Shown: positions 18-62,431, counted from the stretch's first letter. The stretch is 64,000 nucleotides of DNA from an uncultured Clostridia bacterium (GCA_944386745.1 CALXCG010000001.1:31-64030); one strand, 5' to 3'. Notes: generated by a model not told the origin, from the sequence alone. A program made the numbers and translations.

Positions 18-48
18 AGGGATTTTTAGGACCGTCCCCTAATCCCTG
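18..48. repeat. Single copy of the palindromic GGGAC-core element (AGGGATTTTTAGGACCGTCCCCTAATCCCTG). A partner copy may lie upstream of the window edge.
   Basis: Outer inverted arms AGGGATT/AATCCCT enclose an AGGACCGTCCT inner palindrome. The same unit recurs at 22575, 35412, 56304 and 62148. Confidence 0.6.
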
Positions 49-159
49 TTCCTTTGAAAAAAATTTTTAAAGAATTTTCACAATTTCTACAAATTTAGCA
101 AAAAAATGGTGTATAATATAGAAGCAAAGTAAAAATTAAAATTGAAAGGAAAAACAAAT

Positions 160-1065
160 ATGGCAGAATTTAAATCAGGATTTGTAACATTAATAGGAAG
201 AACAAATGTAGGAAAATCAACACTATTAAACTTACTTGTTGGAGAAAAGGTAGCTGCGATAGCAAACAAAGTACAAACAACAAGAACAGCGATAAAAGGA
301 ATAGTAAATAGAGAAAATTCACAAATAATATTTATAGACACCCCAGGAATTCATAAACCAAAAACAAAATTAAATGAAACAATGATAGAAACATCATTTG
401 GAAGCCTTGCAGATAGTGATTTAATATTATTTTTAATTGAAGCAACAAGTGATGAAATTGGTAGAGGAGACAGAAGAATTTTAGACAAAATAAAAGAAGT
501 AAAAAAGAAAACAATTTTAATTATTAATAAAATTGATTTAGTAAAAAAAGAAAAATTGTTAAGTCTAATTGATTTATATAGCAAAGAATATGACTTTGAA
601 GCAGTAATACCAATTTCAGCGACAAATAGCAAATACAGAGAAATTATATTAGATGAAATCGAAAAGAACCTAAAAGAAGGACCTGCATATTATGATATAG
701 AGGAATATACAGACCAGACCTTAAGGCAACTTGCAGAAGAAACAATTAGAGAAAAAGCTTTAAAACTATTACAAGATGAAGTACCACATGGAATTTATGT
801 TGAAGTAGAAAAGATGAAACAAAGAAAAAACAAAAACGGTGAAGATATTTATGACATAGAAGCAACAATTTATTGTTTAAGAAATTCACACAAAGGTATT
901 ATAATAGGAAAAAATGGAGAAATGTTAAAAAGAATTGGAAGAATGGCAAGAATTGACATGGAGGAAAATTTTGGAGTAAAAGTGAATCTAAAAACTTGGG
1001 TAAAAGTGAAAGAAGACTGGCAAGAAAATGATTCAATAGTAAATAAATTTAAATTAAACAAATAG
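160..1065 (+). CDS. era: GTPase Era
   Basis: The N-terminus FVTLIGRTNVGKSTLLN carries a G1 motif, DTPG a G3 motif, and there is a C-terminal KH domain. ATG at 160 follows an AAAGGA RBS. The track start at 142 is an upstream TTG with no RBS. Confidence 0.9.
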   Translation: MAEFKSGFVTLIGRTNVGKSTLLNLLVGEKVAAIANKVQTTRTAIKGIVNRENSQIIFIDTPGIHKPKTKLNETMIETSFGSLADSDLILFLIEATSDEIGRGDRRILDKIKEVKKKTILIINKIDLVKKEKLLSLIDLYSKEYDFEAVIPISATNSKYREIILDEIEKNLKEGPAYYDIEEYTDQTLRQLAEETIREKALKLLQDEVPHGIYVEVEKMKQRKNKNGEDIYDIEATIYCLRNSHKGIIIGKNGEMLKRIGRMARIDMEENFGVKVNLKTWVKVKEDWQENDSIVNKFKLNK

Positions 1066-1125
1066 AATAAAAATACAAAAAATGCAAAAGATAAAATTAA
1101 AGACATAAGGAAGGAATGATAGCAA

Positions 1126-59789: not shown

Positions 59790-59877
59790 AAACTATGAAA
59801 ATAGATATTTCTGAAAAGGGATATCTATTTTCTTTTTACTATTGTTTAAAACATAAAAATTTGATATACTTACATAA

Positions 59878-62148
59878 GTGAAAAAGGAGATTAAAATGGT
59901 AGCAGAAGAAAAAAAAAAAAGAAGAGCAAAAAAACTAAATAGAACATATGACTACAACATACCAAAAGAACTAGAGGACTTGATTTTAGTAGGAAGCAAA
60001 GTCATAGTGCCATTTGGAAAAGGAGAAAAACAAGAAGAAGCGTTTGTAGTTAAATTAAAAGAGAAATCAGAATTTGCAAATAAAGACATTATAAAAATAG
60101 AAGAAAATCTATCAGATAAGCAAATAGAACTTGCAAAATGGATGGCAAATAGATATTTTTGTAATGTATCAGATTGTATCAAACTTATGCTAACACCTGG
60201 AACAAGAACAAAAAATAAAGAAAAGAGAATTCAAGATAAAATCATAAATACAGTATATTTAAAAAAAGATATTGAAGAAATAGAATTTGAGATAGAAACT
60301 AAAAAAATAAAATCTGAGAAACAAATAAAAATATTAAAATTTGTAAAAGATAACAAAGGGGCAACAATACCTGAAATAGAGATGTTCACAGATACATCAA
60401 GAGCAATAGTAAATACATTAATAAAAAACGGATATTTAGAAATTGTAGAAAAAAAGGTAGAAAGAAATCCATTATTATTTAAAGATTATAAGAGAACAGA
60501 AAAATTACAATTAACAGATGAGCAACAAGAAGCATTTGAAGAAGTAGAAAAAGCGATTGATGAAAATAGATTTGAACAATTCTTATTATATGGGGTAACA
60601 GGTTCAGGAAAGACAGAGGTATATTTGCAACTAATACAAAAAGTAATAGAAAACGAAAAAACAGCAATTGTATTAGTTCCAGAAATCTCATTAACTCCAC
60701 AAATGTTAGAAAGATTTGTATCAAGATTTGGAAAAGAAGATATAGCAATATTACATAGTAAACTTTCAATTGGTGAAAGACATGACGAATGGGAAAAAAT
60801 AAGGAATGGAGATGCAAAAATTGTAATAGGAGCAAGGTCGGCTATATTTGCACCATTAGCAAATGTTGGAATTATTATAATAGATGAAGAGCATGATAGC
60901 TCATATAAATCAGAGACAACACCAAAATACAATGCAAAGGAAATAGCAAAGAAGTTAGCAAAAGAAAACAATATTCCATTGTTATTAGGAAGTGCGACAC
61001 CTGATTTACAGACATATTATAAAGCAATGGAAAAAAAGATTAATTTATTAGAACTAACAAAAAGAGCAAATAATTCATCACTTCCATCAGTTGAAATAAT
61101 AGATTTGAAGCAAGAACTTGCAAATGGAAACCGTTCAATGTTAAGTATGGAACTATATTCTAACATAGAAGAAAATTTGAAAAATAAAAGACAGACAATA
61201 TTATTTCTAAATAGAAGAGGTTATTCAACCTTTATAATGTGCAGAAATTGTGGTTACACAGTAAAATGTCCAAATTGCAATATCAGTTTGACATATCATA
61301 GCTATGAAAGAAAATTAAAATGTCATTATTGTGGATATGAGCAAAATATAGTAACAGTATGTCCTGAATGTAAAAGCGATAAAATAAGATATTTTGGAAC
61401 AGGAACACAAAAACTTGAACAAGAAATACATAAGCAATTTCCAAATGCAAGTACAATAAGAATGGATATAGATACTGTAACAAAGAAAAATTCACATGAA
61501 GAAATTTTAAATAAATTCAAAAATGAAAATATAGATATTTTGATAGGAACACAAATGGTGGTAAAAGGGCATCATTTTCCAAATGTAACATTAGTCGGAG
61601 TAATTGCAGCTGATAGTTCGCTAAATATAGATGATTATAGGGCAAATGAAAGAACCTTTCAAATTTTAACACAAGTAGCAGGAAGAGCAGGACGTGAGAA
61701 TTTGCCAGGAAAAGTCATAATTCAAACATATAATCCACAAGGTTTTGCTATACAATGCTCAAGAGAGCAAAATTATGAAAAATTTTACGAAACAGAAATT
61801 GCTTTGAGAAAACAATTGAAATATCCGCCATTTTGCGATATAATATTAATTGGATTTAATAGTTATAATGAAAATGAAATAAGAAAAGTATCAAATCAAA
61901 TGTATGAGGAATTGCAAAAAGAGTTGAACGCATTGATAAATTTGCAGGAGAATGAAATAAAACTATTTAAACCAATGCCTTGTCCAATTGATAAGATACA
62001 AAATAGATATAGGTGGAGAATTATAATAAAAGGAAATATGACAGAAGAAATAAACAGAATTTTAAATGATTCTCTAAAAAATATATATAAGCAAAATATA
62101 AAAGATACAAGAATTTCAATAGATGTGAATCCAAACAATATGAGTTAG
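59878..62148 (+). CDS. priA: Primosomal protein N' (replication restart helicase PriA)
   Basis: Walker A GVTGSGKTEVY, DEEHD box, and two zinc-finger CxxC pairs (CRNCGYTVKCPNC, CHYCGY...CPEC). Coordinates are from the ORF track. The exact start (GTG 59878 versus the ATG six codons later) is unresolved, because I could not reconcile the first ~40 codons by eye. Confidence 0.85.
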   Translation: MKKEIKMVAEEKKKRRAKKLNRTYDYNIPKELEDLILVGSKVIVPFGKGEKQEEAFVVKLKEKSEFANKDIIKIEENLSDKQIELAKWMANRYFCNVSDCIKLMLTPGTRTKNKEKRIQDKIINTVYLKKDIEEIEFEIETKKIKSEKQIKILKFVKDNKGATIPEIEMFTDTSRAIVNTLIKNGYLEIVEKKVERNPLLFKDYKRTEKLQLTDEQQEAFEEVEKAIDENRFEQFLLYGVTGSGKTEVYLQLIQKVIENEKTAIVLVPEISLTPQMLERFVSRFGKEDIAILHSKLSIGERHDEWEKIRNGDAKIVIGARSAIFAPLANVGIIIIDEEHDSSYKSETTPKYNAKEIAKKLAKENNIPLLLGSATPDLQTYYKAMEKKINLLELTKRANNSSLPSVEIIDLKQELANGNRSMLSMELYSNIEENLKNKRQTILFLNRRGYSTFIMCRNCGYTVKCPNCNISLTYHSYERKLKCHYCGYEQNIVTVCPECKSDKIRYFGTGTQKLEQEIHKQFPNASTIRMDIDTVTKKNSHEEILNKFKNENIDILIGTQMVVKGHHFPNVTLVGVIAADSSLNIDDYRANERTFQILTQVAGRAGRENLPGKVIIQTYNPQGFAIQCSREQNYEKFYETEIALRKQLKYPPFCDIILIGFNSYNENEIRKVSNQMYEELQKELNALINLQENEIKLFKPMPCPIDKIQNRYRWRIIIKGNMTEEINRILNDSLKNIYKQNIKDTRISIDVNPNNMS

Positions 62149-62431
62149 CAGGGATTAGGGGACGGTCCTTAAAATCCCTGTTATAGAATTATTTTTCATA
62201 ATACTTTTAAAAATTTATATCATTTCTCGGCTAACATTACATTATATAGTAATTCTAAACTTATAAAATAGGCACCTCTCAAAGCAAGTTTGAGATTCTC
62301 CCATTTTATAAATTAAGAATTTCTAATATAATTTCATTCACATTCGAAATTCATAAATTTTTAAAAGTATTATGAAAGTAAAAGATTTATTATGAAACAG
62401 GGATTTTAAGGACCGTCCCCCTAATCCTTGT
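62148..62431. mobile_element. MITE-like composite element of about 285 bp. It has 32-bp terminal inverted repeats of the GGGAC-core unit plus sub-terminal inverted repeats, and sits between priA and def.
   Basis: Left arm CAGGGATTAGGGGACGGTCCTTAAAATCCCTG (62149-62181). Right arm CAGGGATTTTAAGGACCGTCCCCCTAATCCTTG (62398-62430). Internal IR CATAATACTTTTAAAAATTTAT / ATAAATTTTTAAAAGTATTATG. No ORF. Confidence 0.6.

Follow-up and report, generated by a model that had tools for sequence, protein, structure and literature searches.

GGGAC-tagged intergenic hairpin repeats of probable REP/REPIN type and a RAYT-like transposase gene flanked by them in a clade of gut Clostridia

The REP-1 repeat and its copies

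A 64,000-nt stretch of DNA from an uncultured Clostridia bacterium (GCA_944386745.1, CALXCG010000001.1:31-64030; 27% G+C), referred to here as the window, carries at five sites a palindromic intergenic element with a GGGAC core, which we call REP-1. The element probably belongs to the repetitive extragenic palindromic (REP)/REPIN type of repeat, is vertically inherited within one clade of low-GC gut Clostridia, and has as its cognate enzyme a Y1/HUH transposase of the RAYT/TnpA-REP kind (RAYT, REP-associated tyrosine transposase) encoded by a single-copy, syntenic gene. A first-pass annotation of the window had proposed REP/BOX-like or non-autonomous mobile elements, a proposal now supported by a transposase gene flanked by the units, by the dispersal of the units, by their polymorphism and by the existence of a multi-copy composite.

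REP-1 is a hairpin unit of about 32 nt with the structure NAGGGATT-AG-GGGACGGTCC-TAAA-AATCCCTN' and an 8-bp stem. It was recovered at every one of the five places where a GGGAC/GTCCC palindrome had been noticed, for a total of nine units or half-units in the 64 kb, far above chance: a degenerate 31-mer pattern matched four times (0.00 expected from shuffles) and GGGATT-N(3-30)-AATCCC matched five times (0.06 expected). The copy at 17-48 (minus strand), previously listed by itself, does not stand alone. The orthologous loci L028 and L075 carry both arms, which shows it to be the right arm of a convergent inverted pair; the left arm falls outside the window, ahead of its first base. In the gap between the RNase G gene (rng) and the rimO-like gene, the segment 22571-22688 contains a complete unit A (+) at 22576-22607, a half-unit B (+) at 22612-22635 and an inverted A (-) at 22652-22683. 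A repeat finder returned 43-nt arms, 95% complementary, at 22571-22613/22646-22688; the predicted single-strand hairpin energy is -47 kcal/mol for DNA and -77 for RNA, with z of about -11, and the site is conserved in L071. A convergent pair follows the 6S RNA gene at 35413-35520, with A (+) at 35413-35443 and A (-) at 35491-35520 (inverted repeat 35413-35447/35486-35520, 35 nt, 91%). Both arms at 22576/22652 have the private variant GGGGC and both arms at 35413/35491 read AAGGGAC...TCCTAAAATCC; a pair therefore evolves as one object.

The remaining two sites are composites of other kinds. Between pheT and the open reading frame (ORF) that follows pheS, the minus-strand segment 56300-56355 comprises B at 56300-56319 (core GGGACACTCC) and A at 56325-56355 (core GGGACGTTCT), so that the copy reported at 56304, although present, is a unit plus a half-unit (A+B) rather than a mere variant; its B variant recurs in L018, L054, L069 and L090. 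In the priA/def gap, 62149-62430 is a composite resembling a REPIN or a miniature inverted-repeat transposable element (MITE), in which A (+) at 62149-62180 and A (-) at 62398-62430 enclose an imperfectly palindromic interior of 217 nt (62181-62397). Its inverted repeat, at 62158-62196/62382-62420, is 39 nt long and 85% matched, and the DNA hairpin is predicted at -68.6 kcal/mol with z = -13 (convergent-pair folds have z-scores of -11 to -13). The gaps between the arms of the three window pairs measure 44, 47 and 217 nt, in keeping with the 45-215 bp first given. Pfam matches for the flanking genes (era, pth, RNase E/G-type RNase G, radical-SAM MiaB/RimO type, HlyIII, M20 peptidase, PheS, PheT, MetG, PriA and Def) agree with the reported rng/rimO, hlyIII/peptidase, pheS-ORF/pheT and priA/def gaps.

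The scope of the family was defined by scanning species-representative genomes with a 21-base pattern, which gave at least 111 stretches; L-numbers designate sampled loci. In a set of 146 distinct copies there is almost no variation in seven stem pairs (AGGGATT/AATCCCT) or in the core GGGAC[G/A]NN[C/T]C, and the next two outer stem pairs covary (cag/ctg, tag/cta, gag/ctc, ccg/cgg), with pairing that exceeds all 1000 shuffles. Beyond 8 bp of stem these copies gave no pairing signal over the shuffle control. Among the arrangements scored in the sampled loci, the commonest (36 cases) is A+B, where unit A precedes the half-unit B cAGGGATTTAGGGACGGACCTTa and the two cores lie exactly 36 nt apart. 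Single A units account for 35 cases and convergent A/A pairs for 25; divergent pairs were not seen among these arrangements. In the preferred fold of A+B the 3' arm of A pairs with the 5' arm of B, and the hairpin loop can have either orientation (AAAAAC or GTTTTT); the arms of some lineages lengthen to perfect 20-nt palindromes. At its simplest, the module has a small hairpin enclosed by two direct GGGAC-N5 tags that are spaced 34-36 nt apart. The REP-1 version of this hairpin is AATCCCT/AGGGATT, and an extra 5' GGGATT arm completes the 32-nt unit.

The search beyond the window, which had been suggested as a check, found REP-1 dispersed over at least 25 species-level metagenome-assembled genomes (MAGs) of low-GC gut Clostridia; the sampled loci of a single MAG hold as many as 28 boxes. 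Several sampled loci correspond by orthology to parts of the window (DNA identity 75-94%). Among the matches listed, all hosts are uncultured low-G+C gut MAGs labelled Clostridia, Clostridium or Bacillota, except for one contig. This is L004, a 3.1-kb contig binned as Candidatus Gastranaerophilales, which has a tight REP-1 pair of the same form as that in the Clostridia MAG locus L002; it is probably mis-binned rather than a sign of REP-1 in Cyanobacteriota. Viral contigs yielded no unit matches, and a phage origin is therefore unlikely.

REP-1 lies almost exclusively at the 3' ends of genes. By simple ORF calls, 120 of the 123 units with called genes on both sides are intergenic (86 tandem, 31 convergent, 3 divergent) and three are intragenic; 26 further units lie at locus edges. 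Units often occupy the entire gap between a stop codon and the next ribosome-binding site (RBS), and they hold stops in several frames. The elements fill these gaps and donate stop codons to host genes: the reading AGG GAT TAG/TAA (...RD*) ends a SpoIIE-like gene in L006, a gene in L068 and the M20 peptidase gene of the window, whose TAA at 35511-35513 (minus strand) lies inside a unit and is read AGG GAT TAA, as had been noticed. The priA stop (62146-62148) does abut a copy, which starts at 62149.

A syntenic Y1/HUH gene between inward-facing units

The first-pass annotation had advised a search for a REP-associated tyrosine transposase. An inventory of the ORFs enclosed by widely spaced convergent units revealed such a gene in related genomes, flanked by REP-1. 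In L097 it encodes a 259-aa protein with a Pfam Y1_Tnp match (4e-10) and lies between A+B (left) and B'A' (right), which both point inward. The best match is the NCBIfam model REP_Tyr_transpos ('REP-associated tyrosine transposase'), at 76.3 bits for L097 and 63-76 bits for the family; the IS200 model gives only about 20 bits with the same proteins. A separate tblastn search of all loci, with IS200/IS608 transposase queries, returned only weak matches, which correspond to the SpoIIE C-terminus.

The family comprises 355 database proteins and occupies a single syntenic place, in single copy. The order is ferredoxin gene (fdx), transposase gene, a small ORF in some cases, and, on the opposite strand, 2-oxoacid:ferredoxin oxidoreductase (POR operon); S26 peptidase, holB and PSP1 lie further upstream in all lineages but the most distant. 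This synteny is kept in lineages whose proteins are 42-98% identical to that of L097. Inward-facing units flank the gene in each of the six lineages read, which are 42-100% identical and include L097, L112-L121 and L132-L145, and no other gene was found repeatedly bracketed by units. The flanking units differ in sequence between transposase lineages (GGGATTGAGGGACGGTCC, GGGATTAGGGGACGGTCCTTTAAATCCC, GGGATTTTGGGGACGTACC, GGGATTTGGGGACGTTC, GGGATCTAGGGACGTTCC); judged from these sequences, the unit variant tracks the protein lineage.

Protein comparisons also suggest a likeness to TnpA-REP. The HUH (N-H-x-H) and Y-I-H-x-N-P motifs are invariant in the family. A family profile search has PDB 4ER8, the E. 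coli TnpA-REP-REP complex, as its top match (E = 0.003), an entry that single-sequence phmmer against PDB missed. For the AlphaFold model (pLDDT 84), 4ER8 is the best fold match (155 columns, TM 0.70), ahead of the ISDra2 and IS608 transposases. The proteins are about 258 aa long and share a C-terminal ...ILGIGKNRI... segment; the model places helices at 197-258, the C-terminal 60 or so residues, and this segment has Pfam HTH_23/28/7/8/19 matches, all weak. The cognate enzyme is thus predicted to bear a C-terminal helix-turn-helix (HTH).

Clade-wide synteny and same-sample contigs suggest that the transposase is likely present in the genome of the window as well. Sample ERZ24773367 contains window-identical HlyIII and PheS contigs (coverage 9.3 and 10.2) together with a transposase contig (9.05), and sample ERZ28616039 contains a PheS-identical contig and a transposase contig.

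If it works like E. coli TnpA-REP and IS200/IS605 (PMC8266576, PMC3479197), the enzyme would bind one strand of the hairpin in single-stranded DNA, read the GGGAC tag, and cut and rejoin beside the hairpin, so that units or doublets could be excised or copied with no target duplication. The 8-nt direct arms would also permit slippage deletions, and convergent inverted pairs would fold into long hairpins (REPINs). We infer the mobilisation itself, the strand and cleavage specificity and the effects on transcripts.

Polymorphic sites and competing explanations

The copies had been taken to mark plastic sites, and orthologous sites are indeed polymorphic. Positions 49059-49096 of the window are empty; L068 has A+B there, which recodes the C-terminus to ...RD*. 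At the 6S/M20 site the window has a pair and the ortholog L088 a single unit, and the pheS/pheT gap measures 463 nt in the window versus 32 nt in L092. At the priA/def site, contigs with identical Def and identical flanks carry either the 283-nt composite, a single unit (+) or a single unit (-). Deletion between the 8-nt direct arms would turn the composite into either single-unit form; alternatively, insertion into a resident unit may account for the difference. Gene spacing in hlyIII-M20 and pheS-pheT is invariant within the species in the contigs compared.

The 217-nt interior of the composite recurs at 12 or more non-orthologous loci with 79-88% identity, and a single MAG holds at least five of these. 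Between composite copies, homology reaches precisely to the outer edge of the terminal unit on each side and no further. No similarity to the transposase loci was detected in the interior, which is therefore not a recent internal-deletion derivative of them. No terminal REP units can be recognised on an interior copy in L072 (about 250-590), perhaps because the interior is an independent module that REP units captured or because the L072 copy has decayed. At 62305-62373 (+) are promoter-like hexamers facing def (TTTATA-16-TATAAT, 10/12, and TCGAAA-18-TATTAT), in a stretch conserved in other composite copies, and this segment might be an outward promoter.

Several points weigh against a REP/REPIN system moved by a dedicated enzyme. 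The canonical REP tag GTAG is absent and the invariant motif is GGGAC[AG]NN[CT]C; the REP_Tyr_transpos scores fall under the curated cut-off of 80 bits; and the 64-kb window does not include the transposase gene, so that the presence of the enzyme in this genome is drawn from relatives and one same-sample coverage match. The rng/rimO and priA/def sites are conserved in species about 92-93% identical in DNA, and turnover is therefore slow. The single-unit forms at priA/def can be explained by slippage between the 8-nt direct arms, without a transposase, and the orientation bias of A+B (co-oriented with genes 23:5) could reflect selection at the RNA level rather than strand-specific insertion.

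The best-surviving alternative is that the units are primarily host RNA elements, either intrinsic terminators or 3' mRNA-stabilising hairpins, and that the link to the transposase is incidental. We regard this as unlikely, though far from negligible. It draws on the position of units at gene 3' ends, the A+B orientation bias just given, an RNA hairpin of -18.7 kcal/mol, and a T-run after 46-57% of single or paired units as compared to 12% in the background. However, a T-run follows only 30% of A+B, the commonest form, in which an A-run after the hairpin is common instead, and paired units place a second hairpin facing the oncoming gene start. Ordinary terminators lack an invariant 10-nt loop across genomes. 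A simple terminator scan called just one of six window arms at three sites as terminator-like, because the unit loop exceeds the limit of the scan. Moreover, such a role leaves unexplained both the inverted units around every transposase ortholog and the dispersal of the 283-nt composite. A host RNA function is likely as a secondary role of REP-1, and a hairpin with a T-run makes terminator or 3' mRNA stabiliser activity plausible for a subset of copies.

The invariant core and the fixed 34-36-nt spacing of the direct tags would also suit binding sites for a host DNA-binding protein (of the nucleoid, gyrase or uptake-signal type) amplified for that function, and E. coli REPs do bind IHF, gyrase and Pol I (PMC6006769). 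Yet nothing in the analysis pointed to such a protein, uptake signals also occur inside genes whereas these units are nearly all intergenic, and protein binding is compatible with a REP origin rather than an alternative to it; we thus consider this explanation improbable.

Still less credible is that the elements are classical MITEs, that is, deletion derivatives of a DDE-type insertion sequence (IS) moved in trans via terminal inverted repeats (TIRs). The composites do have TIRs and AT-rich interiors, and a DDE_Tnp_1 gene lies just past the window end in near-identical contigs. The MITE likeness noted for the 62148-62431 copy holds as far as a multi-copy composite with TIRs is concerned; it fails on target-site duplications, for which a check had been proposed and which in 33 pairs do not differ from the shuffled control in length distribution or counts. 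Single units and A+B are as common as pairs, the only gene found to be bracketed repeatedly is that of the Y1/HUH enzyme, the DDE gene was not seen flanked by units, and the 156 loci examined contain no autonomous IS with matching TIRs.

Equally remote is a conserved cis-regulatory or structured noncoding RNA family (riboswitch, ribozyme or small RNA), to which the covarying stem pairs and strong folds would lend themselves: covariation is confined to the two outermost pairs, copies adjoin unrelated housekeeping genes in both orientations and are present or absent between close relatives, and the units have no Rfam match (6S RNA alone matched over the window at the gathering threshold, and 62130-62450, the composite, gave nothing at E<=1). 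A tRNA scan found none. CRISPR remnants (no spacer arrays), integron attC sites (housekeeping context, no integrase) and DNA uptake signals (units almost absent from coding DNA) were set aside on these grounds, without a dedicated test.

Related families, neighbouring features and comparison with known systems

The inventory of GGGAC elements at five sites was correct for REP-1 and overlooked two related families. REP-2 has a copy just upstream of metG at 38747-38812 (-), consisting of GGGACGTTTC, a small GGACA/TGTCC hairpin and GGGACACTTC, then an extra GGAC/GGGACG stretch. Three MAGs close to the window species encode, between an mtaB-like gene and radA-disA, a transposase paralog with 30% identity; inverted REP-2 copies flank it in L021 and L043, and L081 keeps one copy. 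REP-3 is represented at 21295-21347 (+), where GGGACGTGCC and GGGACAGACC enclose a GTTTC/GAAAC hairpin with cores 34 nt apart and the first bases overlap the pth TAG stop, and at 58771-58823 (+), a copy 85% identical to the former that overlaps the pheT TAG stop. REP-2 and REP-3 share the REP-1 plan of two direct GGGAC tags around a small hairpin. In addition, 9030-9160 and 44612-44672 (+) share a leader-like element of about 55 nt, GGGACATTCCT...ACCAAAGAGTAA(A)GGTGTGTC(C/A)C(T/C)TGTC, an inverted pair of GGGAC-type cores situated upstream of the RBS of a 434-aa ORF at 9177 and of a 441-aa ORF at 44659. Neither segment has an Rfam match at E<=1; the element could represent a fourth family of REP-like repeats, or else a previously unknown 5' UTR motif.

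Other features adjoin the REP-1 sites. The 6S RNA gene (35211-35403, +; RF00013, 86.4 bits, full-length) closes with a T-run of its own, some 10 nt short of the REP-1 pair, which therefore stands between 6S and the convergent M20 peptidase gene. The ORF beside the pheS/pheT A+B (55983-56291, +; 98-102 aa) has no Pfam match and is called as a gene in six same-species contigs; the whole 430-nt pheS-pheT segment is absent from the more distant L092 (UMGS1531). In the def/fmt gap, L122 and L127 (1990-2190, equivalent to window 62941-62984) have an insertion of about 167 nt unrelated to the REP families; the two contigs encode the same Def protein, and the window and other contigs do not have the insertion. 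The DDE_Tnp_1/DUF772 transposase gene mentioned above follows fmt in L123 and L128 (3184-3489, about 130 nt past the right end of the window), contigs that apart from this gene are near-identical to the window. In other strains an Asp23 gene takes its place, and the difference is therefore an IS insertion polymorphism. Elsewhere, ORF 17992-18519 contains at least five tandem 33-nt (11-codon) repeats at 18042-18310 and its predicted product resembles a repetitive protein of coiled-coil-like character. At 11284-13660, after the genes at 9177-11265, four or five small genes in a row encode a common start MENASKALI(I/M)AG... and look like a paralogous pilin-like cluster.

The elements account for odd gene ends (...RD*), assembly breaks and intergenic length differences in these MAGs, and they are usable as strain-typing markers. 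If terminator or promoter effects are true, they would shape operon expression near pheST, priA-def and 6S RNA.

REP/REPIN-RAYT systems have been studied almost only in Proteobacteria. The paradigm is one of extragenic hairpins, doublets, one vertically inherited, repeat-flanked Y1 gene per family and several families per genome (PMC3116915, PMC2817692, PMC6006769). With the gammaproteobacterial systems (REP/BIME/REPIN-RAYT of E. coli, Pseudomonas and Stenotrophomonas) the present one shares many short extragenic hairpins at gene 3' ends, inverted doublets that form long hairpins, a single-copy, vertically inherited Y1/HUH gene flanked by inverted repeats (REPtron), several families each with its own paralog, and no target duplication. 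It differs in the tag, GGGAC(G/A) here as opposed to GTAG (GTAG/GTGG at the hairpin foot) there; in the module, two direct tags around a hairpin plus an extra arm; in the enzyme, about 258 aa with a predicted C-terminal HTH and below the NCBIfam equivalog cut-off; and in the host, low-GC Bacillota. In E. coli and Stenotrophomonas the enzyme binds the REP hairpin on one strand only, makes use of the tag and cleaves at an adjacent CT (PMC8266576), and the same logic of binding and cutting may apply here.

The system seems to fit better with the TIRYT/TIRtron class than with the canonical REP form. TIRYTs are longer, HTH-bearing enzymes whose flanking inverted repeats contain GGGGWSAS (Di Nocera 2013, PMC3733652). 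They have been equated with the TnpA-REP-like subclass 2.1, reported without nearby REP-like sequences (Quentin 2018, PMC6006769), and are possibly the same as the Group 1 RAYTs noted in Clostridia by Bertels (2017, PMC5581495), who tied abundant REPs only to Groups 2 and 3. TIRYTs and the present system may have in common a longer RAYT-like protein with a C-terminal HTH (predicted here) and inverted flanks with a G-rich motif. The flank motifs GGGGACGG, GGGACACA and GGGACAGA match the published one in part: the first departs from GGGGWSAS at position 7, and the other two fit WSAS but have three G residues. Some published TIR families are likewise moderately abundant and arranged as dimers; the flanks described here, however, are hairpins, abundant, and form REPIN-like doublets and the 283-nt composite. 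Unlike the subclass 2.1 genes, for which Quentin et al. saw no REP-like neighbours, the genes in question, putative members of that subclass, are flanked by REP-like repeats.

A further comparison concerns the CGTC-tagged REPs (Neisseria dRS3, Rickettsia RPE-4/6; PMC3733652), which are published without a dedicated transposase. On the opposite strand, REP-1 reads CGTCCC followed by a stem of about 9 bp starting with A/T pairs, and, in a way reminiscent of the Rickettsia RPEs, it contributes stop codons and inserts in frame where genes end. Two extra C residues separate tag and stem in REP-1, and its loop is 6 nt as compared to 4-5 in the published families; this likeness, taken from text description, is a lead only. 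As in IS200/IS605 ends and PATE/MITE derivatives, sub-terminal hairpins would be read by a Y1 HUH enzyme in single-stranded DNA with no target duplication, but the transposase here is single-copy and syntenic, not multi-copy, fits the IS200 model at only about 20 bits, as noted above, and has no TnpB. Pneumococcal BOX/RUP, Neisseria Correia and enterobacterial ERIC elements are, like REP-1, modular small intergenic repeats of compact genomes, with the capacity to change gene ends and perhaps transcription; they differ in that they lack a cognate Y1 enzyme and have no sequence similarity to REP-1, and Correia and RUP rely on DDE transposases and generate target duplications.

The text of the Di Nocera survey (PMC3733652) does not mention Firmicutes, and the REP literature consulted names no REP family from that phylum. 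It is conceivable, and we put it forward tentatively, that this is the first REPIN-RAYT population described in Bacillota, that the HTH-bearing RAYT class (TIRYT, subclass 2.1, possibly Group 1) maintains large multi-family REP/REPIN populations, and that CGTCCC, the complement of the GGGAC tag, would link the orphan CGTC-tagged REPs to a dedicated Y1 enzyme. A small-genome clade of gut Clostridia with two such enzymes, each bracketed by its own abundant GGGAC-tagged repeat, is a tractable natural system for asking what this class of RAYT does. In conclusion, REP-1 probably represents a familiar class of element that here takes an unusual form in an unusual host.

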